From contig SCQK01000015.1 in assembly GCA_004321885.1 (NCBI GenBank), positions 1 to 31,763 of the forward strand: DNA of 31,763 bases. Direction: 5' to 3'. Positions 5,111 to 31,641 of the stretch are shown in pieces; position 1 is the stretch's first letter, and each line of letters begins with the position of its first letter. The translations under genes and the position numbers were made by a program. Origin of the DNA: Patescibacteria group bacterium (GTDB lineage Bacteria > Patescibacteriota > Patescibacteriia > Magasanikbacterales > GWA2-37-8). Under the pieces are notes generated by a model. That model saw nothing but the letters and a program-made list of their open reading frames with translations, did no database searches and was not told the origin of the DNA.

Positions 5111-6104
5111 CTGCGTGCTGGCGGTTACGTACAACTGCAACGCGCGGTGCGTGATGTGCGATATTTGGAAAATCAAAAATTTTTCCGAGCTGGCGCCTGA
5201 GCAATTTTTGAAACTGCCCGCCAGCTTGCGCGATGTGAATATCTCCGGCGGCGAGCCGTTTTTGCGGCGCGACTTGCCCCAGATAATTCACAATGTAAAA
5301 AAAGCGTGCCCGGCCGCGCGGCTCGTGATTTCCACAAACGGCTTCGCGACTGGTTTGATTCTGGCGCAGATGCGAAAAATTTTTGAAATAAAACCCAATA
5401 TCGGCATTGCGATTTCCATAGACGGAATAGGGGAGAAGCACGACGAGATGCGCGGCATACGGGGCGGGTTTAATATGGCCATGAAAACCCTTGAAGGGCT
5501 AAAGAGAATGGGCATGAAAAATTTGCGGCTGGGTTTTACGGTGACAGAGAGAAATATCAACGAGTTGGGGCGCGTGTATAATTTGGCGCGCAAAGAAGGC
5601 GTGGAGTTCACCAACAGCTTTGCCCAGAGTTCGGATATTTATTTTGGGGGGAAACAGAATACGGATTTTAAGGATATGGATTCCGGCTCGGGGGCCGGAA
5701 TGACAAAAGAGGTCCTACGCGCGCAATACCGACATCTTATCAGGGCCGAGCTTTCCGGTTGGAATATAAAGCGCTGGGCGCGCGCCTACTACGCGCATGG
5801 GATGTACAATTTTATCACCGGCAAGCAGGCCGAGCTTTCCAGCGCGCCCGGGCGCGACTTTTTCTTTTTGGACCCGTCGGGCGAAATTTATCCCTCGGTG
5901 GTGCATAATTTTAGGATGGGGAATATTCGGGCGGTTCAGGGGTTTGAACAATTTTGGTGTTCAAGCGCCAGCGAGGGTGTGCGGGAAAAAATAGACGCGG
6001 CCAAACTGCCGGTTTGGATGATATGCACCGCGCGCACAGCCATAAAAAAGCACCCCTTCAAAGTGGGGTGGTGGGTTTTGAAAAATAAATTCAGCGTCCG
6101 GTAA
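5079..6104 (+). CDS. Radical SAM domain protein.
   Basis: A CxxxCxxC cluster (CNARCVMCDIW) lies near the N-terminus, and a 'NISGGEPFLRRDL' SAM/Gly-rich motif is present. The 5' end overlaps the glycosyltransferase gene, suggesting an operon. Confidence 0.7.
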   Translation: MKKFICRLPIDCVLAVTYNCNARCVMCDIWKIKNFSELAPEQFLKLPASLRDVNISGGEPFLRRDLPQIIHNVKKACPAARLVISTNGFATGLILAQMRKIFEIKPNIGIAISIDGIGEKHDEMRGIRGGFNMAMKTLEGLKRMGMKNLRLGFTVTERNINELGRVYNLARKEGVEFTNSFAQSSDIYFGGKQNTDFKDMDSGSGAGMTKEVLRAQYRHLIRAELSGWNIKRWARAYYAHGMYNFITGKQAELSSAPGRDFFFLDPSGEIYPSVVHNFRMGNIRAVQGFEQFWCSSASEGVREKIDAAKLPVWMICTARTAIKKHPFKVGWWVLKNKFSVR

Positions 6105-6987
6105 CAAGGCAAACCACAGGCCCGCCAAATTCCCAGCCCGCGGACAGCGCCTGGCGCAGACCCGCCACAGACAAAGCGCTGTTGGCCGAGATTTCAATTC
6201 CGGTCGTTTGCTTGAATAGCTTGATGGCCGACAATATCTCGGCATTCGTCGCTATCCATCCGGAGCCGTTGCTTTTTTTAATGGCGTTTACAACCGCTTC
6301 TTTGCGCCTGGCGATTCTATCCACAATCGCGCCGGCCAAACTAACCTCATCTTTTTTGGCGCTGTCTGGCAGGGGCAAACGTTTGGCCTCGGCCGCCGAG
6401 GCGATAGGGTGGCAGGTGGATGTTTGCACGATATGTATTTGCGGGCAAGCGCCGATTTTTTTGAAGCCTTCGTACAGTCCCTGGGCCGCGGCGCCGCTGG
6501 AAGTGGGCACAAAAATAGCGGACAGATTTTTGACCGCGCTTAATTCCTTGGCCAATTCAAAATAGCCGCTGAGCGCCGAGTCGTCGGTGGACTGGCGCAA
6601 GAGTTTGGCAGTGCCGGCCTTGTCGGCCTGGAAGGCGGACTGGCGCGGATTTTTTACCTGGCGCAGTTCAATATTTGGGCCGGCTAAATCCGTCAGTATT
6701 TTCATTTTCGCCCTATCTATTTTTTCTCCGATAAAGATTTTTAATTTTATCGGTTGCGAGTTGTGATTTTTAATGTGATAAGCCGCGGCCAGCGCCGCGT
6801 TGCCCGACGAAGAAATCACAAAATCCAACCAGCCTTCTTTGGCGTGTTTCTCTATCATCAACGGAATAGAGCGTCCCTTGTGCGAGCCATAGGGGTGCAA
6901 GTCTTCACGTTTCAAGTAAAGCTCTGTTGGCAGTCCCAAGGCCTCTGCCAACCGGCTTGCCTTGATTTGCGGAGTGGGTCTTGTCAC
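6091..6987 (-). CDS. PLP-dependent enzyme, fold type II (threonine synthase / threonine dehydratase / cysteine synthase superfamily).
   Basis: An 'LKREDLHPYGSHKGR' motif (S-x-K-x-R PLP-lysine motif) and a Gly-rich loop 'VPTSSGAAAQG' are present. The protein is 298 aa. Confidence 0.55.
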   Translation of the reverse strand: MTRPTPQIKASRLAEALGLPTELYLKREDLHPYGSHKGRSIPLMIEKHAKEGWLDFVISSSGNAALAAAYHIKNHNSQPIKLKIFIGEKIDRAKMKILTDLAGPNIELRQVKNPRQSAFQADKAGTAKLLRQSTDDSALSGYFELAKELSAVKNLSAIFVPTSSGAAAQGLYEGFKKIGACPQIHIVQTSTCHPIASAAEAKRLPLPDSAKKDEVSLAGAIVDRIARRKEAVVNAIKKSNGSGWIATNAEILSAIKLFKQTTGIEISANSALSVAGLRQALSAGWEFGGPVVCLVTGR

Positions 6988-14025: not shown

Positions 14026-14847
14026 ATGAATAAAATTTTTAACGAAGATATTTTATTAGGAATAGATAAAATAGAAGACAATTCTATTGATTTAATTTTA
14101 ACTGATCCTCCTTATTGTTTAGGCAAAGATTATGGCAATGATTCTGATCAAAAATCATCTGAGGATTATCTGAACTGGACATATCAATGGATTGATGCGG
14201 TTTTGCCTAAATTAAAAAATAGTGGAAGTTTTTATATTTTTTTAAGCTGGCAATATTCACCAGAAATTTTTTGTTATTTAAAAAAGAAATTACGAATGGT
14301 CAATGAAATTATTTGGGATAGACGAGTGCCAAGCATGGGCGGTTCTACTAGAAAATTTTCATCTGTCCACGACAATATAGGTTTTTTTGTAAAAAATAAT
14401 AATTATTATTTTGATTTAGATAGCATTAGAATTCCCTACGATGAAGAAACTAAAAAAGCAAGAACTCGATCAATTTTTGTTGGAAAAAAATGGTTAGAAA
14501 TGGGCTACAATCCAAAAGATTTATGGAGTACACCAAGAATACACACACAAGACCCTGAAAGAGAAAATCACCCAACCCAAAAACCTTTAGAAATAATTGA
14601 ACGAATGGTAAAAGCAAGTTGTCCTAAAAACGGAATTGTTTTTGATCCATTCATGGGAACCGGAACAACTGCTATCGCTTGCCTATCAAGCAATAGGCAA
14701 TATGTAGGATTTGAAATAAATAAAGATTATCACAAACTAATAACAAATCGAATCAAGAAACATAATAGTTGCCCGACTTTATTTCAACAACAGAAGCAAA
14801 AACAAGGTAATTTGACTCAAGGCATTCACCTATGCACGATAAATTGA
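14026..14847 (+). CDS. DNA methyltransferase, beta-class amino-MTase (N4-cytosine or N6-adenine), type II R-M system M subunit.
   Basis: An N-terminal 'DLILTDPPYCLG' (motif IV, DPPY) precedes a C-terminal 'HPTQKPLEIIERMV...VFDPFMGTGTTAIA' (motif I/SAM binding), giving the circularly permuted beta-class order. The composition is AT-rich. Confidence 0.85.
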   Translation: MNKIFNEDILLGIDKIEDNSIDLILTDPPYCLGKDYGNDSDQKSSEDYLNWTYQWIDAVLPKLKNSGSFYIFLSWQYSPEIFCYLKKKLRMVNEIIWDRRVPSMGGSTRKFSSVHDNIGFFVKNNNYYFDLDSIRIPYDEETKKARTRSIFVGKKWLEMGYNPKDLWSTPRIHTQDPERENHPTQKPLEIIERMVKASCPKNGIVFDPFMGTGTTAIACLSSNRQYVGFEINKDYHKLITNRIKKHNSCPTLFQQQKQKQGNLTQGIHLCTIN

Positions 14848-18579: not shown

Positions 18580-20211
18580 ATGAATCAAGAGCGGGCCCTG
18601 CAAATTTTAAAAACCGGCGCCAATGTTTTTCTGACCGGCGAACCCGGGTCGGGTAAAACGCACACGGTAAACGCTTATGCGCGTTATCTGCGCCAGAGGG
18701 GGATCGCGCCGGCGATTACCGCGTCCACCGGCATAGCCGCCACGCATATCGGCGGTTTTACGATACACTCGTGGAGCGGCATAGGCGTAGCGCCTCGGCT
18801 GGACAGATATTTGCTTGATAAAATTTCCACAAACGAGAGGGTGGTAAAGCGCGCGGGCGCGGCCAAAGTGCTGGTGATAGATGAAGTTTCAATGCTCGGC
18901 CCGGAAACTTTGTCCATGGTTGACGCGGTTTTGCGGGAAATCAAAAGATGCCGCGAGCCGTTTGGCGGCTTGCAAATAATTTTAGTGGGTGATTTTTTTC
19001 AATTGCCGCCGGTGGAAAAAAACCTTCCGGAAATTCAGAATAGTTTACTCCAAGATAGGCCGGCGCGATTCGCCTTTGATTCGCCGGGCTGGAAAAATCT
19101 GCGGCCAATGGTTTGCTATCTCACGGAACAGCATCGGCAGGACGATCCGCAATTTTTGGGTTTGCTTTCCGCCATCCGTGGAAATCGCTTTAGCGACAAT
19201 CATCTATCTTTGATAAACAGCCGTAAAACCGAATCCGCCCAAGCGCCCGATCGCGTTCCCAAACTTTTTTCCCATAACATTGACGTTGGCCGCGTAAACG
19301 ATGAAACATTGTCCAAGCTTCCCGGGCCGGAAAAAACTTTTTTTATGTCATCGCGCGGAAACCCGCGATTGGTTGAATTTTTAATAAAGGGTTGCCTATC
19401 GCCTGAAAAACTTTGTTTAAAAAAGGGCGCGGCCGTGATGTTCACGAAAAATAATCAGGCCGAAGGGTATGTCAACGGCACGCTGGGAGTGGTACAAAAT
19501 TTCAGCGAGTCAGGCGCTCCGATTATAAAAACGCGCGGCGGGCGGTTTATTGATGTGACAGCGGCCGAGTGGGCGCTGGAAGACAACGGACGCGTGCTGG
19601 CGACGATTGAACAATTGCCCCTACGTTTGGCCTGGGCCATTACCGTGCACAAAAGTCAGGGTATGAGTTTGGATGAAGCGACCATGGATTTGAGCCGTGT
19701 TTTTGAATATGGACAGGGATACGTGGCTCTGTCGCGCGTGCGGCGGCTCTCGGGCGTGCATTTGCTGGGCTGGAACGAACGCGCTTTCGCCGTGCACCCG
19801 GAGGTTTTGGAAAAAGATCAGGAGTTTAGAACTTCGTCGTTGGCATCGGAAGAGGCGTTCGCGAAATTGCCGGACGAGGAACTAAAAAAAATGAGCGATA
19901 ATTTTGTCGTGGCCTGCGGAGGCCAGGTCGGTGGCGTCGTGTCCCCCTCCTTTATAAGGAGGGGGCAGGGGGAGGTATTGCAGGGGTCATCGCGGTCGGG
20001 CGGCTTTGATAAAATCCGTCAAGATCACCCAAACGCCTATCGCCCGTGGGAGCCGGAGCAAGACGAAGAATTAAAAAAACTTTTCGCGCGAAAAACATCA
20101 ATCAAGGATATATCAAAAAAACTTGGCCGCAAAAAAGGCGGCATCACTTCGCGCCTGGTGCGTCTGGGCGTTGTTGAAAGCCGCGAGCAAGCCAGGGCAC
20201 AGCGCGGTTAA
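18580..20211 (+). CDS. SF1B PIF1/RecD-like ATP-dependent DNA helicase with a C-terminal HTH-like tail.
   Basis: Walker A 'TGEPGSGKTH', Walker B 'VLVIDEVSMLG' and 'ILVGDFFQLPPV' are present. The C-terminal portion is UvrD_C-like, and the last about 60 aa are 'KKLFARKTSIKDISKKLGRKKGGITSRLVRLGV'. Nucleotides 19943-19965 (B-type palindrome) are in frame, encoding 'VVSPSFIRRGQGE'. Confidence 0.75.
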   Translation: MNQERALQILKTGANVFLTGEPGSGKTHTVNAYARYLRQRGIAPAITASTGIAATHIGGFTIHSWSGIGVAPRLDRYLLDKISTNERVVKRAGAAKVLVIDEVSMLGPETLSMVDAVLREIKRCREPFGGLQIILVGDFFQLPPVEKNLPEIQNSLLQDRPARFAFDSPGWKNLRPMVCYLTEQHRQDDPQFLGLLSAIRGNRFSDNHLSLINSRKTESAQAPDRVPKLFSHNIDVGRVNDETLSKLPGPEKTFFMSSRGNPRLVEFLIKGCLSPEKLCLKKGAAVMFTKNNQAEGYVNGTLGVVQNFSESGAPIIKTRGGRFIDVTAAEWALEDNGRVLATIEQLPLRLAWAITVHKSQGMSLDEATMDLSRVFEYGQGYVALSRVRRLSGVHLLGWNERAFAVHPEVLEKDQEFRTSSLASEEAFAKLPDEELKKMSDNFVVACGGQVGGVVSPSFIRRGQGEVLQGSSRSGGFDKIRQDHPNAYRPWEPEQDEELKKLFARKTSIKDISKKLGRKKGGITSRLVRLGVVESREQARAQRG

Positions 20212-20337: not shown

Positions 20338-21171
20338 TTGTCGGGTATGTCAAAAATTTTGGAAAATATTAAGCAGCGACCATATTTTTCGAAGAACAAT
20401 TTTGTCCTGTACAGGGACAACTGTTTAAATATTCTGGGAAAATTACCAGAGAATTCGGTTGACATGATTTTTGCAGATCCTCCTTATTTGCTTTCGAACG
20501 GCGGAATGACGTGCAATGGGGGGAAAATGGTAAGCGTTGATAAAGGGCAGTGGGATGTGAGTAACGGTTTAAAAAAGGACTGGGAATTTCATTTGAGCTG
20601 GATTAAAGCGTGTCATCGAGTATTAAAGCCATGCGGAACAATTTGGATAAGTGGGACCTATCACTCCATTTATCAATGCGGATTCGCTTTGCAGGTCAAC
20701 AAATTTCATATTTTGAATGATATTGCCTGGTTCAAACCGAATGCGTCTCCAAATTTGAGTTGTCGATTTTTTACTGCTAGCCACGAAACGATTATTTGGG
20801 CTCGGAAAGATAAAAAAGGAAAACACAAATTTAATTATGAGCTAATGAAAAACAGAGACTGGACGGGTGATTTTATAAAAAAACCGAATCTTCAAATGCG
20901 AAGTGTTTGGGCTATTTATCCTCCCAAAAAAGAAGAAAAGATTTTTGGTAAGCACCCCACTCAAAAACCGATAGATTTATTGGTTAGGATTATCCTCGCA
21001 AGCACAGATAAGGGCGACATTGTTTTGGACCCATTTACCGGCTCTTCAACTTCAGGGCTGGCGGCATTTTTGAATGAAAGAAAATTCGTTGGTATTGATT
21101 TGGAAAAAAAATATCTAGATATATCCATTAAACGTTTCAGCAGTTTTAAAAAAGAAGCCCCTCATTTATGA
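20338..21171 (+). CDS. Orphan beta-class DNA amino-methyltransferase (N6-adenine or N4-cytosine).
   Basis: An 'DMIFADPPYLL' (DPPY) motif is N-terminal, and 'HPTQKPIDLLVRIILAST..GDIVLDPFTGSSTSG' is C-terminal. The islet is low-GC (about one-third). No intact REase ORF is adjacent. Confidence 0.85.
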   Translation: MSGMSKILENIKQRPYFSKNNFVLYRDNCLNILGKLPENSVDMIFADPPYLLSNGGMTCNGGKMVSVDKGQWDVSNGLKKDWEFHLSWIKACHRVLKPCGTIWISGTYHSIYQCGFALQVNKFHILNDIAWFKPNASPNLSCRFFTASHETIIWARKDKKGKHKFNYELMKNRDWTGDFIKKPNLQMRSVWAIYPPKKEEKIFGKHPTQKPIDLLVRIILASTDKGDIVLDPFTGSSTSGLAAFLNERKFVGIDLEKKYLDISIKRFSSFKKEAPHL

Positions 21172-27092: not shown

Positions 27093-27476
27093 ATGCGGCC
27101 ATCATCGGGTTTGGGAACACTGGAGCGAAAAATAATGGAAACAATCTGGGACGCCGGCGACTCGGCATCGGTGCGCGCTGTTTTTGATTGCCTGAAAACG
27201 AAAAAAAAGATTTGCTATACCACGGTGATGACTATAATGACCCGCTTGTGCGAAAAAAACATGCTTAGGCGCGCCATGGGCGAAGACGGCGCGTATATTT
27301 ACAGCGCCGCGCAAAGCAAAAAAGATTTTTTGAGATCGGTGTTTAAGCGCACCGTGGGCGCCCTGGTGGGGCAATTCGGCGAGCTGGCCGTGGCCCAGTT
27401 TATAGACGCGGTGGAATCCAGCAACCTGAAAAACTTAAAAGAGTGGCGCGAGAAATTGAAGAAGATTCTGAAATAA
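27093..27476 (+). CDS. BlaI/MecI/CopY-family winged-helix transcriptional repressor.
   Basis: An 'LGTLERKIMETIWDAGDSASVRAVFDCL....YTTVMTIMTRLCEKNMLRR' segment matches the Penicillinase_R fold. The protein is 127 aa. An M56-peptidase gene lies immediately downstream. Confidence 0.8.
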   Translation: MRPSSGLGTLERKIMETIWDAGDSASVRAVFDCLKTKKKICYTTVMTIMTRLCEKNMLRRAMGEDGAYIYSAAQSKKDFLRSVFKRTVGALVGQFGELAVAQFIDAVESSNLKNLKEWREKLKKILK

Positions 27477-27500: not shown

Positions 27501-28529
27501 ATGAGCGAAAATAATTTTAAGGCAAAAGCGAACGCGCTGTTCGCGTTTATAGTTATCGTCGGCCTGATATTTAGCGCCGCGATGTTTAGGCTGGCGCTAA
27601 AATACATTCCAACGTTTGGCAATTTCCTAACCTCGGCCAGGCATGGGTTGGACGCGCTTTGCGGTTGCGGGGCGCATTTAAGTTTTTCCACCCACCCCTA
27701 TATCTGGAGCGGCCTGCTGGCGGTCGGAATTATTATAAGCGGATTCTTTGTGGCGGCCGGAGCGCGCGGGCTAGGGTATTTTTTTAGAAATAGAAAGTAT
27801 TTAAAATCGCGCCTGGCCCGGGCCGTAAAGCCGGCCGGCAAACTATCGCGCGCGGCGCGCGCCCTGACCCTGGAAGACAAGGTCCGGCTGGCGCCCTCCG
27901 CGGCCGTGGAGGCTTTTTGCTGCGGTTTTTGGCGCCCAAAAATTTACGTTAGCGGCGGCCTGGCCGCGCGGCTGAATCTAACGGAGTTGGTATCCGTATT
28001 ATCGCACGAAAAACAGCACCTGCTGTCGCGCGACCCGCTCAAAATTTTTATTGCTAATCTGGCGCGCAAAATATTTTTCTTTGTGCCCGGATTAAAAAGC
28101 CTGGTCAAGCGATTTTCGCTTTACAGCGAACTGTCGGCCGACGCGCGCGCCACCGCCGGTTTTAAGAATAAAATTTATCTGGCCTCGGCCCTGCTCAAAA
28201 TAATTAAAACAAAAGAAAATTTCGCCTGGCAGACCCCGTTTGAAGCATTGCCCCTGTCCGGGTTTGCCAATCTTACCGGAGAACGCATCAGCCAACTGGC
28301 TGATGGAAAAATTGCGCGACACCGCCTTGCTCCAATCAAATCATTCTTCTTATTTTTCGGCGCCGCAGGAACCCTGATTGTGCTGACGTTTGTCCCGATG
28401 CTGTTGCGCGCCGACTGGCTAGACCGCACTGCCAAAGAGACATGCTCGGCTTTTTCGCATACGCACGAGACCCATGCCGCGTCAAAGTCGTGCGCGCAAT
28501 CATCCCGGTACGTGGCAACGAATCCTTAG
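27501..28529 (+). CDS. BlaR1/MecR1-like M56-family membrane metalloprotease (signal transducer), lacking a C-terminal penicillin-binding sensor domain.
   Basis: The N-terminus has TM helices. The zinc motif 'SHEKQHLLSRD' (HExxHxxxxD) is characteristic of BlaR1/M56. The protein is 342 aa with a C-terminal TM and tail only. Confidence 0.75.
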   Translation: MSENNFKAKANALFAFIVIVGLIFSAAMFRLALKYIPTFGNFLTSARHGLDALCGCGAHLSFSTHPYIWSGLLAVGIIISGFFVAAGARGLGYFFRNRKYLKSRLARAVKPAGKLSRAARALTLEDKVRLAPSAAVEAFCCGFWRPKIYVSGGLAARLNLTELVSVLSHEKQHLLSRDPLKIFIANLARKIFFFVPGLKSLVKRFSLYSELSADARATAGFKNKIYLASALLKIIKTKENFAWQTPFEALPLSGFANLTGERISQLADGKIARHRLAPIKSFFLFFGAAGTLIVLTFVPMLLRADWLDRTAKETCSAFSHTHETHAASKSCAQSSRYVATNP

Positions 28530-28546: not shown

Positions 28547-28584
28547 TTGACAACTTTTCCTGCCTACTACATAATGTAGTAGGC
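28547..28584 (+). promoter_or_regulatory. Promoter (TTGACA-17-CATAAT) with an overlapping 23-nt perfect palindrome containing TACA-N3-TGTA. This is a candidate BlaI/CopY-type operator controlling the downstream redox cluster.
   Basis: TTGACA is at 28547-28552, CATAAT at 28570-28575, and the palindrome gcctactacaTAAtgtagtaggc at 28562-28584. The BlaI/MecI/CopY operators are TACA/TGTA dyads that overlap the -10. Confidence 0.55.
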
Positions 28585-28596
28585 ATTGAATTTTTA

Positions 28597-29355
28597 ATGT
28601 CATTGCGACTATTATATATGGCAAACTTAAATAGGTTAACGCGGCCGCGCCAATACTTGGCGGTCGTAAATATAATTGCTCTAACGGTTTTTCTTTTTGC
28701 GACGGTCACCAATCAGGTGGTTATCGCCTCCACCAGCAGCGCCCTGGGCGGCACGCGTTATATGGCCAAACTGCTTTCCCTGCTTGGCGGAGGGCTGAAA
28801 CTTTCGGGCGACGCGGCCGCGGACGCGATGAAGTTAGTGCTCTCGGCCGGCGTGCCCGCGGTGTACGGCGCGGAAATGGGTGTGGACTTTGAACATGTCC
28901 AGCCGGCGATAGACAAAATGAAAATCTACGACCCGACCTACGGGGCGCAAAAAATCGTTCTCGCCGGCGATGACCTGAAACGTTATATAGAAATCGCCCT
29001 GAAAATTTCCTGCGAATATTGTTGTGGAGCCAAAAGCATTATCCGCGAAAACGGCGAAGCGGCCTGCGGTTGCGCCCACTCGCAAGCCATGCGCGGGTTG
29101 GCCGCTTACCTGCTCAAAAACCACTCGCAAATGAGCAATGATGAAATTTTGCGCGAACTGGCGCGCTGGAAAGGCATGTATTTTCCCAAACAGATGATGC
29201 AGAAAATGAGCGGGCATCTGCAAAGCGGAAGTTTCACGCCCGATACGGCCGCGCTGATTATGGGAATGAAACTGCCCAAGTATGGCCAAACCAACGGCGC
29301 GGCCCCGCTTCCGTCCGAAATTAAAGACATGCCTGGAATGGTGGGGGGATGCTAA
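28597..29355 (+). CDS. Membrane-anchored Cys-cluster protein (CEYCCGAK...CGCAHS) with a flexible C-terminal linker ending in MPGMVGGC. An alternative start lies at 28618.
   Basis: An N-terminal hydrophobic anchor 'YLAVVNIIALTVFLFATV' is present, with central Cys motifs. The C-terminal octapeptide is shared with the next ORF. It is the first gene after the candidate operator. Confidence 0.5.
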   Translation: MSLRLLYMANLNRLTRPRQYLAVVNIIALTVFLFATVTNQVVIASTSSALGGTRYMAKLLSLLGGGLKLSGDAAADAMKLVLSAGVPAVYGAEMGVDFEHVQPAIDKMKIYDPTYGAQKIVLAGDDLKRYIEIALKISCEYCCGAKSIIRENGEAACGCAHSQAMRGLAAYLLKNHSQMSNDEILRELARWKGMYFPKQMMQKMSGHLQSGSFTPDTAALIMGMKLPKYGQTNGAAPLPSEIKDMPGMVGGC

Positions 29356-29378
29356 ACTCAAAAAAATAATTTTATTCT

Positions 29379-29663
29379 ATGGAAAATTTATCGCCAACGC
29401 CAGCAGGGCAAACGGAACTTCAGCAGATAAAGCAGGAAATTTTAAGCGAGCTCGGCGCCAAGCCCAAAGCCGGACCGCTCAACTGGGGCAGTCTGCTGGT
29501 AACGATTATTCTGCTCGCGCTGACGGCGCTGTCCATCGTGCAGGTGGCGCAGTCGTACACAATCATGAACAAGGTGCGCGCGGGCGGAGGCACAGTCGCG
29601 CCAGCGGCGGCCGGGGGTTCCAGCGCCAACAGCGCCATGCCCGACATGGTGGGCGGATGTTAA
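29379..29663 (+). CDS. Small single-TM protein (94 aa) with a Gly/Ala/Ser linker and a C-terminal MPDMVGGC tail.
   Basis: A TM 'LLVTIILLALTALSIV' is preceded by a Lys-rich segment, suggesting N-in/C-out topology. The tail is 'AGGGTVAPAAAGGSSANSAMPDMVGGC*'. At the DNA level it ends catgcccgacatggtgggcggatgttaa, and the previous gene ends catgcctggaatggtggggggatgctaa. Confidence 0.5.
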   Translation: MENLSPTPAGQTELQQIKQEILSELGAKPKAGPLNWGSLLVTIILLALTALSIVQVAQSYTIMNKVRAGGGTVAPAAAGGSSANSAMPDMVGGC

Positions 29664-29672
29664 TTACGGTAT

Positions 29673-30485
29673 ATGCAAATTGAATTTAAGCTCGGGACGC
29701 AAAAATTTTTAATCGCGGCCGTTTTAATGGCAACAAGCCTGGCGGTCGGCATTTTCGTGTCCGCGCGCGCCAATTCTGCTCTGAAAGTCAACATTGCGGC
29801 CAGAACCGAAGCCGCGCGTCCGGCCAAATTAAGTGTAATCGCAGTGGTGGACTATGACTGTAAAGAATGCTCGCAAGCGGATGATTATTGGAAAACGCTT
29901 TCAGCGCTGAATATGGACAGCAACGGCTATAAAACTATTTCCGCCGACATTGACGAGGGCAAAAATTTAATCGCCAAATACAACATTACCAAACTCCCGT
30001 CAGTGATTGTTAGCGGCGAAACCAGCAAAAACGAGGATGTTAAAACTTTTCTGCAAAAAAATGGCGTAACAGCCGGCGACGCCATCGTTCTAAAAACCCG
30101 CGCTCCGTATCAGGAAATAAAAACCGGCGCCGTGCGCGGAATCACACAACTTGCGGAAATAGGGGACAGCCGCTGTAAAAATTGCTACAGCCCCGCGGAG
30201 CATGAAAAGATATTAAAAGGCATGGGAATTTATTTTGGCGAACCGCAAAAGTTGGACTATTGGAGCGGCGCCGGAAAAAATTTAGCCGTCAAATACAAGA
30301 TGAAACAAATTCCCACGATAGTTTTAACCGGCGATCTGGCGGCCTACGACGGCTTTGCCAATATTTGGAAGCAGGTCGGCACTGTGGAAAAAGACGGGGC
30401 TCATATTTTTAGAAACGGCGTCGCCAGCATGGGCGTTTACCGGGATTTGCAAACCGACAAAATCGTTGAGCCGCCCAAGCAATAG
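29673..30485 (+). CDS. Exported tandem thioredoxin-like protein with two CxxC motifs.
   Basis: A signal-anchor 'FLIAAVLMATSLAVGIFV' is present, followed by 'VVDYDCKECSQ' and 'GDSRCKNCYSP' about 100 aa apart, each in Trx/DsbA-like context. Confidence 0.55.
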   Translation: MQIEFKLGTQKFLIAAVLMATSLAVGIFVSARANSALKVNIAARTEAARPAKLSVIAVVDYDCKECSQADDYWKTLSALNMDSNGYKTISADIDEGKNLIAKYNITKLPSVIVSGETSKNEDVKTFLQKNGVTAGDAIVLKTRAPYQEIKTGAVRGITQLAEIGDSRCKNCYSPAEHEKILKGMGIYFGEPQKLDYWSGAGKNLAVKYKMKQIPTIVLTGDLAAYDGFANIWKQVGTVEKDGAHIFRNGVASMGVYRDLQTDKIVEPPKQ

Positions 30486-30486
30486 T

Positions 30487-30918
30487 ATGAATAAAATGCT
30501 AATAGCGATCGGGGCGGTTTTACTGATAGGGCTATCTATTTTTGGCTACTTGAAGGCCGTGCCCAAGCCGGCCAGCGACAACGCGCCGCGGCCCCGGGCA
30601 AAAATAGAAAATCCGGCTTTTGATTTTGGCGAAATCGTTTTTGGCGTGATGGCCACGCACACGTTCAAGCTCTTTAATAATGGCAACGCGCCTTTGGAAA
30701 TAAAGCGGGTGGCCACTTCCTGCTCGTGCACCACGGCCGAGGTGAGCAAAAAAATGATTGAGCCCGGGCAGTCGGCTGAAATAAGCGTGCGCTACGACAC
30801 CAAAGCCATGGGTTCTGGCCCGCATGGCGTCGGATTGCAAGAACGCATTATCTATATAAAGACCAATGACCCCGCAAACCCGCAGGTGGAAGCCAATATT
30901 TCCGCTTTTGTGAAGTAA
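30487..30918 (+). CDS. DUF1573-family protein. The start is at the ATG at 30487; the longer track ORF from 30355 overlaps the preceding gene.
   Basis: An N-terminal TM is present. An 'FDFGEI..G....HTFKLFNNGNAPLEIKRVATSCSCTTAEV....PGQSAEISVRYD' segment matches the DUF1573 consensus (F.F.N.G..L.I..V..SCGCT...PG). Confidence 0.6.
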   Translation: MNKMLIAIGAVLLIGLSIFGYLKAVPKPASDNAPRPRAKIENPAFDFGEIVFGVMATHTFKLFNNGNAPLEIKRVATSCSCTTAEVSKKMIEPGQSAEISVRYDTKAMGSGPHGVGLQERIIYIKTNDPANPQVEANISAFVK

Positions 30919-30921
30919 CTA

Positions 30922-31641
30922 TTGCCGATAATTATGTTCCTCCTCACTGCCATCAACGCCTCAAACCCCAAAATAATGCTGCCGCTCGTGGCCGGCACCG
31001 GATTTTTAGATGGCATCCATCCCTGCGCCATTGCCATTCTGATTTTTTTTATCGCCTTTCTCATCTCCATGCAAAAGGCGTTCAAAAATATCCTGGTAAT
31101 GGGCCTGGTGTATGTGGGCGTGATATTTTTAACCTACCTGGCCGTGGGCGTGGGCCTGCTTTCAGGCATAATGTTTTTCGGCCAGCATCATTTTTTCGCC
31201 AAGGTCGGTTCTTATCTTCTCATTTTGCTGGGTGTTTTGTCTTTGCGTGACGGTTTTTTGCCCCGCTTTCGCTTAGGATTAAAGATGCCGAAATTTTCCA
31301 ATGACAAAATTCGCGCCCTGCTGGAAAAGGCCACGCTCCCGACTGTGGCCGGCGCCGCCTTTCTGGTGGGCCTCTGCTCCATTCCCTGCTCGGGCGGCAT
31401 TTACGCGGCCATCACGTCTCTGCTCGCTTCGCAGACTACTTTCTTCACCGGTTTTTTGTATCTCATTTTGTATAATTTGATGTTTATCGCGCCGCTCGTT
31501 ATACTGCTCCTCGTGGCGGCCAATCCTTTTACGCTTGTAAAATTGGGCGAATGGCAGCAACGCAACCGGCGGCAGCAGCTGATTATTATGGGCATCGCCA
31601 TGCTGGCGCTCGGTATTTTATTTTTAATATTTATAGTATAA
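30922..31641 (+). CDS. CcdA/DsbD-family transmembrane thiol-disulfide electron transporter.
   Basis: The protein is a multi-TM with one Cys in TM1 (GIHPCAIAILIFF) and a Cys pair in a later TM (LCSIPCSGGIYAAI), as in DsbD_2/CcdA proteins. It is the terminal gene of the Trx-like cluster. Confidence 0.55.
   Translation: MPIIMFLLTAINASNPKIMLPLVAGTGFLDGIHPCAIAILIFFIAFLISMQKAFKNILVMGLVYVGVIFLTYLAVGVGLLSGIMFFGQHHFFAKVGSYLLILLGVLSLRDGFLPRFRLGLKMPKFSNDKIRALLEKATLPTVAGAAFLVGLCSIPCSGGIYAAITSLLASQTTFFTGFLYLILYNLMFIAPLVILLLVAANPFTLVKLGEWQQRNRRQQLIIMGIAMLALGILFLIFIV

Follow-up and report, generated by a model that had tools for sequence, protein, structure and literature searches.

A cysteine-ended C-terminal tail shared by two adjacent, otherwise unrelated membrane proteins of candidate phyla radiation bacteria and DPANN archaea, and its possible place in an envelope thiol system

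Bacteria of the candidate phyla radiation (CPR) and DPANN archaea account for a large share of microbial diversity and live attached to other cells, and their envelope biochemistry is almost uncharacterised. Redox-active flexible C-terminal arms are known from thioredoxin reductase (GCUG), MerA (a C-terminal CC), Erv2p (a CGC tail) and DsrC, and copper-stress envelope thiol systems are known as ScsABCD, and as DsbC/DsbD under copper stress. Gly-Gly tails thread into narrow pockets in other systems, and CxC and CxxCC motifs are typical of Cu(I)-thiolate clusters. The ECGLH tail of APS/PAPS reductase is likewise a redox C-terminal arm (PMC1175818), and the thiol oxidoreductase CcmH carries its redox CxxC in the loop that joins its first two helices (PMC3884852). 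Here, we have analysed 31,763 nucleotides (the window) of a metagenome-assembled contig of Patescibacteria (CPR), SCQK01000015.1, and describe two adjacent genes whose products end in the same type of cysteine-terminated octapeptide. We refer to the 252-residue protein as BIG and to the 94-residue protein as SMALL; both are annotated as 'hypothetical protein' (EPN28_04720 and EPN28_04725).

That two neighbouring membrane proteins share a terminal octapeptide, and that their tails are similar also at the DNA level, had been claimed in a preliminary description of the window, and both claims stand. The tail-coding stretches (29328-29355 and 29636-29663) are 82% identical over 28 nucleotides, with mainly synonymous differences, and they are the sole long direct repeat of the region. 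Two surveys placed the tail in a wider context. A genome scan with one genome per species, seeded by the Cys-cluster motifs of BIG and making no use of the tail, found BIG relatives in 484 species genomes, and 80 loci with 13,578 open reading frames (ORFs) were fetched from it. A metagenome scan for DNA encoding P-x-M-V-G-G-C-stop, blind to protein family, returned 120 loci. The neighbourhood set comprises 204 loci (cited below by their L numbers) and 1.5 Mb. A GGC ending was found in 76 of the 80 BIG homologues of the genome loci and in 147 of the 13,578 ORFs, where about one would be expected by our own estimate from typical residue frequencies; all but one of the 147 are BIG or SMALL. The shared ending is neither a chance match nor a local artefact. 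Among the 189 ORFs ending in [MQ]xGGC in the metagenome-scan loci, 146 are BIG, 41 are additional SMALL-type proteins and two are short chance ORFs. The tail is restricted to two protein types. The earlier concern that it might exist on these two proteins alone is answered in part: the tail is spread over hundreds of species, yet confined to orthologues of BIG and SMALL.

The last residues of the tail are strongly conserved. MVGGC ends 114 of the 120 best BIG relatives, and the remainder end in QVGGC, MIGGC or MVGDC or are truncated. Statistics for each position were taken from the best 150 of 274 clusters (a library clustered at 50% identity and searched exhaustively with profiles). The terminal Cys is present in 131 of these 150 clusters, and the remaining 19 seem mostly to be fragments or to have wrongly called ends. 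Within the 131 Cys-ending clusters, Gly(-3) is found in all, Val(-4) in 119, Pro(-7) in 97, Leu(-8) in 80 and Gly(-2) in 112, the last being otherwise S, D, E, A or K, with D, E or K directly before the Cys in 10 clusters (~8%). Position -5 is Met in 94 clusters and Gln in 33, and Gln, Trp and Phe together take up 28%. The conserved signature is [L]-P-x-[M/Q]-V-G-G-C-COOH rather than M-P-x-M, and its invariant part is V-G-G-C, above all Gly(-3) and the terminal Cys; DPANN versions are without the LP. A conserved Met-x-Met...Cys set, as proposed in the preliminary description, was not borne out, since its first Met is usually Leu and its second is Gln in the 33 of 131 clusters given above. The octapeptide itself is shared, but in many genomes the shared module is longer, about 17 residues (APLPSxLxNLPxMVGGC), as exemplified by AAPLPSSLQNLPNMVGGC in both genes of L042 and L043.

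BIG and SMALL also vary together. Their last five residues are identical in 65 of 66 BIG-SMALL pairs, a value reached by none of 100,000 permutations. Rare variant endings invariably appear in BIG and SMALL of a genome together, namely QVGGC in L026, L030, L031, L034 and L040, MAGGC in L037, L046 and L050, and QQGGC in L044. The genomes with variant tails cluster phylogenetically, so the number of independent co-variation events is smaller than it appears. In a subfamily ending …EFPDFLPxMVGGC (L051, L053-56, L059, L062), BIG carries the tail with no SMALL adjacent, and the tail must therefore make sense for BIG alone.

Apart from the tail, the two proteins are not alignable, as had been stated. 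Profile-profile comparison of BIG with SMALL gives E=5e-11 over the C-terminal part when the tail is included, and a generic match between transmembrane (TM) helices is all that is left once the last 18 residues are removed. An 'EIL.EL' similarity between the two is also lost with the tail. Full-length tandem paralogy was thus rejected: BIG and SMALL share a C-terminal module and are not paralogues along their length.

BIG is an undescribed and unannotated family. Neither Pfam nor NCBIfam has a family that matches BIG or SMALL, a PDB sequence search with the BIG family profile gave no match, and no description of the tail motif or of the BIG family was found in the literature searched. The database relatives of BIG number 866, and the profile search gives 274 clusters at 50% identity. 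The 484 species genomes with BIG relatives are spread over many CPR lineages (including Magasanik-, Buchanan-, Uhr-, Peregrini- and Saccharibacteria), DPANN archaea (Woese-, Nano-, Pace- and Aenigmatarchaeota, Iainarchaeum), one Methanosarcinales bin and a few Nitrospirota. Weak matches to Pfam DUF6551 (9 of 97 BIG relatives, best E=2e-4) and to C_GCAxxG_C_C, a putative redox-active protein (one relative), were not reproduced in ten other members, and domain fusions in long family members were uninformative.

In the window, BIG begins with basic residues followed by a TM helix at about residues 21-43, and its helical domain would lie outside the cell; the NCBI model of the gene starts at 28618 and is 245 residues long. 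An AlphaFold2 model has a mean pLDDT (predicted local distance difference test) of 86, with helices at 73-81, 101-109, 124-134, 160-175, 181-195 and 197-210. The invariant set of five cysteines and one histidine (C-x2-C-C ... C-G-C-A-H-S) falls in a short beta/knuckle region of the model, residues 139-159, between helices 124-134 and 160-175. Tail residues 241-250 have a pLDDT of 83, i.e. they are not modelled as free coil. A few BIG homologues have no Cys tail altogether (L049:4294-4929, L067:5827-6468, L068:5920-6735 and L010), the one in L010 being frameshifted by appearance. No TGA readthrough pattern that would place selenocysteine at the terminal position was seen in these four non-GGC ORFs.

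SMALL consists of an N-terminal part, a TM helix at about residues 38-60, a low-complexity Gly/Ala/Ser/Pro linker and the tail. A word-seeded search with the 94-residue protein returned only itself, and the family was recovered by position and tail instead. Window included, 66 locus pairs have a SMALL orthologue directly downstream of BIG; these are single-pass proteins of 53-140 residues with the same ending, and L065 has three SMALL-type genes. Lys/Arg residues before the TM helix predict a cytoplasmic N-terminus by the positive-inside rule. From the TM helices and this rule, the tails of both BIG and SMALL are most likely outside the cytoplasm, in agreement with the preliminary description.

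The N-terminal part of SMALL is variable. In 19 of the 66 proteins it has either a vicinal CC with histidines (HEHCEHC, NNCCENHEH, MDCCEN...) or a C2H2-like motif. CC pairs are found, for example, in L008, L015, L022, L027, L029, L031, L034, L040, L060, L065, L066, L074, L076 and L079, and the zinc-finger-like C2H2 motif in L024 and L036; SMALL of the window has neither. Archaeal SMALL proteins have Met/His-rich linkers, GETYEEMMARMHP(D/E)Q or WTxxEKMxYEHHGTLPARL, immediately ahead of the tail (L061:6630-6941, L066:6507-6827, L175, L178, L191; L073:6671-6952, L107, L112). In L068 the BIG protein without a Cys tail (5920-6735) ends in this same WTxxEKMxYEHHGTLPARL motif. At the outer end of its TM helix, SMALL has a conserved V-Q-x-x-Q motif (SIVQVAQSY at residues 52-60 in the window; ...SAVQAFQL... 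in archaea), of which the V-Q-A / A-Q-x part resembles a signal-peptidase (-3,-1) site. SMALL might be cleaved at V-Q-A and released as a soluble cysteine-ended peptide. BIG has a conserved N-Q at the matching position, and pairing of the two TM helices might be an alternative role of these motifs.

Table 1. Coordinates in the window of BIG, SMALL, their tails and the associated genes and site
Feature	Position	Strand	Description
BlaI/MecI/CopY-family winged-helix repressor	27093..27476	+	127 aa; Pfam Penicillinase_R E=5.5e-21
BlaR1-like M56 membrane metalloprotease/sensor	27501..28529	+	342 aa; Pfam Peptidase_M56 1.7e-13, Peptidase_M48 9e-9
Candidate BlaI operator	28564..28582	.	palindrome CTACTACA-TAA-TGTAGTAG, 14 nt upstream of BIG start codon
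BIG	28597..29355	+	252 aa, membrane-anchored, ending ...EIKDMPGMVGGC*
Invariant Cys cluster of BIG	29011..29073	+	C139-E-Y-C142-C143 ... C157-G-C159-A-H161-S
BIG tail	29329..29355	+	M-P-G-M-V-G-G-C and stop codon
SMALL	29379..29663	+	94-aa single-pass membrane protein, EPN28_04725, ending ...ANSAMPDMVGGC*
SMALL tail	29637..29663	+	M-P-D-M-V-G-G-C and stop codon
Tandem thioredoxin-fold protein	29673..30485	+	membrane-anchored; two units, CxxC each (CKEC, CKNC)
DUF1573 / OS_HP2-type Ig-like protein	30487..30918	+	C-S-C motif; Pfam DUF1573 1.1e-21
CcdA/DsbD-clan membrane protein	30922..31641	+	Pfam SfLAP 5.7e-10; TM Pro-Cys motifs HPC, IPC

The neighbours previously assigned to the two genes were recovered by family models (Table 1): the Penicillinase_R repressor, the Peptidase_M56 protein with its HExxH, the thioredoxin-like and DUF1573 proteins and the CcdA/DsbD-clan protein. 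In CPR the gene order BlaI - M56 - BIG - SMALL - thioredoxin-like - DUF1573 (one to three copies) - CcdA is conserved, and archaeal loci have BIG, SMALL and, often, a thioredoxin-like gene and a divergent BlaI/M56 pair. The thioredoxin-fold gene tracks SMALL across loci, and CcdA-like orthologues were found in 25 of the 80 genome loci. From its sequence, the CcdA-like protein is probably an importer of reducing equivalents. The locus has the parts of a DsbD/CcdA-type pathway, a DsbD-clan protein with two TM cysteines and a non-cytoplasmic thioredoxin-fold partner with CxxC, and by analogy the CcdA, thioredoxin-fold and Ig-fold proteins may stand for the DsbD modules beta, gamma and alpha, respectively. 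The DUF1573 protein of the window scores 2.5e-20 with the NCBIfam OS_HP2 (seleno)protein model, below its cut-off. A 276-residue DUF1573 protein in L202 (11950-12780) has an extra N-terminal domain, CGCCG-x9-CCG...GLSKDEIMIAAVKEFG, that recalls the helix motif of CcmH and BIG (S-x-x-E-I...[YF]-G).

The regulators of the window are BlaI and the M56 sensor. BlaI lacks a C-terminal CxC metal site, which points to the protease-cleaved type, and its match to NCBIfam CopY_TcrY (5.9e-9) is below cut-off. BlaI lies upstream of the BIG family in 36 of the 80 genome loci, and BlaI and M56 together directly upstream in 34-36 of the 80, with BlaI/M56 present in archaeal loci as well. The HExxH of the M56 sensor is HEKQH (residues 169-173). 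No penicillin-binding (class D beta-lactamase-like) domain was found in this protein, which ends 38 residues past its last TM helix and scores 17.6 bits with NCBIfam blaR1_generic, against a cut-off of 400. Across 35 orthologues it has a conserved CGC (residues 54-56) in a first loop predicted to be outside, given a topology set by the cytoplasmic protease domain, and three conserved cysteines after the last TM helix. These features suggest that the M56 protein may be a thiol- or metal-sensing variant of BlaR1. The operator proposed in front of BIG is also recovered. The palindrome occurs once in the window and in none of 100 shuffles, the candidate BlaI target before BIG being CTACTACATAATGTAGTAG, and about 20 CPR loci have CTACTA[CT]A-N3-T[GA]TAGTAG ahead of BIG (including L001-L004, L007, L010, L013-L015, L017, L024-L026, L031, L033, L034 and L040). 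It is probably the BlaI operator; no second copy was found upstream of blaI in the window.

Other lineages use a different regulator. In 12 loci without BlaI/M56 (L048, L049, L053, L054, L056, L062, L134, L156, L157, L159, L184, L196), BIG is preceded on its own strand by a CsoR-family gene, with 0-45 bp between the end of that gene and BIG. CsoR-family fingerprints distinguish Cu(I) sensors (x-C-H-C) from those of Ni/Co (H-C-H-H) and persulfide (x-C-x-C) (PMC8643695). All 12 proteins have the x-C-H-C pattern (…YCIDIMQQ…NHLNTCF…) of the Cu(I) type, and a more distant H-C-H-H (RcnR-like) member is found in L007, L018, L031 and L202. CsoR-family and copper genes recur in the neighbourhood set: CsoR-family genes in 25 of the 204 loci, DUF411/CopG in 19, CPC-type P1B ATPases with HMA domains in 14 and Cupredoxin_1 in 9. 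By our own estimate, a given 12-kb window of a ~1-Mb genome would contain any one single-copy gene about 1% of the time. DUF411/CopG, a member of the copper-induced CueR regulon of Vibrio (PMC12341060), directly follows BIG-SMALL in DPANN loci L064 and L066.

Three other kinds of neighbour, all uncharacterised, recur in L202 (12780-16735) and many other loci: a protein with IHWHPH...PIHTHD motifs (31 loci), membrane proteins with a GxGC-x2-CG motif (37 loci) and a membrane protein that has two adjacent cysteines (CC) within a TM helix and matches MerT weakly (NCBIfam E=1e-3; 44 loci). Many records of metagenome-assembled genomes titled 'uncultured Gammaproteobacteria bacterium' (e.g. L001, L003-L007, L010, L013) have the CPR-type BlaI-M56-BIG-SMALL-thioredoxin operon at 55-59% identity, and the organism names in these titles are probably wrong. 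Elsewhere in the window, two N6/N4 DNA methylase genes (14026-14847 and 20338-21171; Pfam N6_N4_Mtase 4e-58 and 2e-55) and a PIF1-like helicase (18580-20211) sit amid cell-wall genes (MurB, Mur ligase, MraY-like), and no restriction enzyme was recognised.

We argue that BIG and SMALL are the core of a conserved CPR/DPANN envelope thiol system, probably copper-induced, in which the tail is a flexible cysteine-presenting arm; we consider this proposal about evenly poised between right and wrong. BIG would be held in the membrane by its one N-terminal helix with the Cys-rich helical domain outside, and SMALL would present little beyond its linker and tail. With Gly(-3) invariant and the residue at -2 small, the tip seems to be under a steric requirement, as if it had to thread into a narrow pocket. 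The slim Gly-Gly-Cys tip could thread into one shared pocket, the arm being docked by Val(-4) and by a large side chain (M, Q, W or F) at -5. A disulfide, or a Cu(I) ion, would then pass between the terminal thiol and a cysteine centre, which could be the CxxCC/CxC cluster of BIG, the tandem thioredoxin-fold protein or the membrane-embedded cysteines of CcdA. A pocket common to both would account for the presence of one tail, with coupled variation, on two unrelated proteins. Electrons passing through CcdA to the thioredoxin-fold protein and the Ig-like DUF1573 protein would keep the arm reduced, and the whole would resemble a DsbD whose modules have become separate proteins and which supplies a CcmH-like end point. 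Control would lie with BlaI and the Cys-rich BlaR1-like protease in the window and with the Cu(I)-type CsoR in other lineages. That the terminal Cys may be kept reduced by the thioredoxin/CcdA pair had been suggested before, and this would fit the conserved operon and the weak CcmH-like resemblance of BIG.

A more specific version, possible but doubtful in our opinion, is that the arms make up a new 'split' active site, or act as a tethered thiol shuttle, peculiar to the ultra-small-cell radiations. The thiol of BIG might join that of SMALL, in a redox-active disulfide between the proteins or in a bis-thiolate Cu(I) site; or each arm might dip into the membrane-embedded cysteines of CcdA and draw electrons directly. 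In both cases, the arms would replace, at the cell surface, the low-molecular-weight thiols that these organisms cannot make. As a further variant, SMALL cut after V-Q-A would become a diffusible carrier of the terminal cysteine.

Several observations weigh against the proposed envelope thiol system. The resemblance of the Cys-rich core of BIG to the three-helix thiol oxidoreductase CcmH is weak. C139-E-Y-C142 aligns on the CPKC/CPQC of CcmH in three independent alignments and sits between helices 124-134 and 160-175. Profile comparisons of BIG with CcmH reach P ~0.02 at best, three-helix bundles are common, Pfam CcmH (PF03918) does not match BIG even at E<=10, and Foldseek of the BIG model against the PDB gave nothing. 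No clear signal for a docking pocket was obtained when BIG was searched for residues that co-vary with M/Q at -5, the best position being residue 163 of the BIG of the window, beside CGCAHS (mutual information 0.24, confounded by phylogeny). Met(-5) is Gln in a quarter of clusters, so that a Met+Cys chelate is not the general mechanism. The CcdA-like gene was not seen within the fetched flanks of 14 of 37 long loci. The window's own operon has no recognised copper gene, and the neighbouring P-type ATPase, considered as a copper pump, was rejected as a P2-type cation pump rather than a CPC-type one; we therefore infer copper as the inducing signal from orthologous loci. Finally, tail codons are identical within a genome in 203 of 389 cases, where 145 would be expected from local codon usage (z=6.3), and part of the within-genome identity of the tails is due to concerted evolution.

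The last observation would be expected if the tail were a by-product of local duplication or gene conversion between neighbours with no shared function, and the tail pairs of L042 and L043 are indeed DNA-identical over at least 50 nucleotides. Nearly half of the tail codons differ while the peptide is kept, which shows that selection acts on the peptide. The tail is conserved throughout 274 clusters at 50% identity, in both bacteria and archaea, and in BIG without SMALL. This already contradicts gene conversion as the sole cause, which we find scarcely credible. It was also considered that the tail is a processing, sorting or lipid tag, with VGGC as a C-terminal lipobox for Lgt, LPxM|VGGC as a sortase-like site, or the Cys as the substrate of another modifying enzyme. 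V-G-G-C fits a loose lipobox pattern, and LPxM is superficially like LPXTG. Genes for Lgt, the bacterial-type prolipoprotein diacylglyceryl transferase, are found near BIG in 9 of the 204 loci (L064:9452-10210, Pfam LGT 2e-65; L068, L067, L026, L079, L137, L149, L153, L200), including two Nanoarchaeota bins, which is unusual for archaea. The restriction of the tail to two protein families speaks strongly against a general signal for sorting or attachment; the operon has no conserved gene for a candidate enzyme, and the DPANN versions have no LP. The tail is preceded by a hydrophilic linker rather than the h-region of a signal peptide, and the D, E or K found at -2 in ~8% of clusters is disallowed at the corresponding -1 of a lipobox. 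The tail is not a sorting signal, and the recognition tag offered in the preliminary description, whether of the sortase or the lipobox kind, is very unlikely.

More can be said for pure metal handling, in which the tails are capture arms for soft metals (Cu(I)/Ag(I)/Hg(II)): BIG and SMALL would meet in the membrane, their terminal thiolates would form a two-coordinate or Met-assisted site, the ion would be sequestered or passed to the BIG cluster, CopG or the Cys-bearing membrane proteins, and thioredoxin/CcdA would only keep the thiols reduced. Such a role is in line with the copper-gene neighbourhood and the CsoR genes upstream, the CC/His-rich N-termini of 19 of 66 SMALL proteins, the GETYEEMMARMHP and WTxxEKMxYEHHG motifs ahead of archaeal tails, the CxC/CxxCC motifs of BIG and the neighbouring CC-pair protein with its weak MerT match. 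Of the soft-metal ligand set first suggested for the tail, the copper context is well supported (12 CsoR loci, CopG/DUF411, CPC-type ATPases, cupredoxin) but the Met-x-Met...Cys ligands are not conserved, position -5 being Gln, Trp or Phe in more than a quarter of clusters as given above. The strict Gly(-3) and small -2 residue resemble steric threading and not a chelate, and a two-tail site is not general given the BIG-only subfamily. We judge pure metal handling unlikely. Alternatively, the tail Cys could be a ligand read by the BlaR1-like sensor for example through a mixed disulfide or metal bridge to the CGC predicted outside or to the C-terminal cysteines of the sensor, and the BlaI switch would in this way learn from BIG and SMALL the state of envelope thiols or copper. 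The sensor, with its cysteines predicted outside and no penicillin-binding domain, its frequent place directly upstream of BIG, archaeal loci included, and the operator in front of BIG would suit this role, but many lineages keep a tailed BIG with CsoR, or with no BlaI/M56 nearby. The function of the tail therefore cannot depend on the M56 sensor, and such an input is quite unlikely as its explanation. Lastly, BIG could be a CcmH paralogue that serves cytochrome c or heme maturation, its terminal Cys handling heme or CXXCH motifs. Besides a possible CcmH-like fold, this is suggested by Nitrospiraceae L055 (4994-10156, CP070737.1), where BIG lies in a cluster DsbD_TM - BIG - CcmH - Redoxin (CcmG-like) - CcmE - CcmF with no SMALL. 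That is the only one of the 204 loci with ccm genes, the others point to copper, and CPR and DPANN genomes are generally without c-type cytochromes and heme synthesis, making a heme accessory highly improbable.

The BIG-SMALL module is one of few multi-gene cassettes common to CPR and DPANN. No family model describes it, yet its signature is clear (the last residue is Cys and the third from the end is Gly), and the tail provides a simple sequence tag for finding the system in metagenomes. If the copper/thiol reading is true, the module would show how surface cysteines are protected and copper is handled without glutathione-type thiols, Dsb systems or outer membranes, and would represent a new design of redox or metal 'swinging arms' with the same arm on two proteins. 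A BlaR1-like sensor with cysteines in place of the penicillin-binding domain would be a new type of input for the BlaR1 signalling family.

How, then, does this locus compare with known systems? Its known parts, BlaI/BlaR1 or CsoR, a thioredoxin fold and CcdA, would by analogy work like reductive envelope pathways such as Ccm thio-reduction and Scs/DsbC-DsbD. What appears new from the sequences is the BIG family, a sensor with a new input module, and a shared terminal-Cys arm, for which no precedent on two different proteins was found in the databases and literature searched. Relative to the CcmH-CcmG-DsbD/CcdA pathway of System I, the distinguishing features of BIG are its N-terminal anchor, a further helical subdomain, three more invariant cysteines together with a histidine, and the terminal-Cys tail; nearly all of its host genomes are without ccm genes. 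To our knowledge, no CcmH shares a tail with a second protein. The likeness to Scs and DsbC-DsbD lies in a DsbD-like reductant importer and thioredoxin-fold proteins set against envelope copper, and in the association with copper regulators and copper-resistance genes. Unlike in Scs, the regulators are BlaI/BlaR1-like or CsoR; BIG and SMALL have no homologue among Scs proteins, and nothing in Scs corresponds to the Ig-like DUF1573 proteins or to the shared arms. CopG (DUF411) is similarly a cysteine-rich (CxCC), copper-linked envelope protein, but it has a thioredoxin-like fold, whereas BIG is helical and not homologous to it.

With BlaI/BlaR1 (MecI/MecR1) the locus has in common the Penicillinase_R repressor, the M56 zinc protease with HExxH and a palindromic operator of the TACA/TGTA type; it differs in a sensor with conserved cysteines predicted outside instead of a penicillin-binding domain, and in a target that is a thiol/metal cluster and not a beta-lactamase or PBP2a gene. 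LPXTG, PEP-CTERM, GlyGly-CTERM and PGF-CTERM are, like the tail, short conserved C-terminal motifs of envelope proteins. The tail is none of them, as the preliminary description had recognised for the first three: the stop codon directly follows the Cys in the window and in all homologues, with no TM helix or basic cluster after it, only two cargo families carry it (187 of 189 tail-ending ORFs), and no sortase- or exosortase-type gene is conserved in the operon. It differs from the lipobox of Lgt substrates as well, by its place at the extreme C-terminus. The closest parallel is with the redox-active C-terminal arms, in which a near-terminal Cys on a flexible tail enters an active site and is recycled by a thioredoxin-type partner, with adjacent glycines giving reach. 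Those arms, however, belong to one enzyme each, in the cytoplasm or an organelle, whereas the arm of BIG has nothing after its Cys, probably lies outside the cell, and is repeated on an otherwise unrelated small membrane protein.

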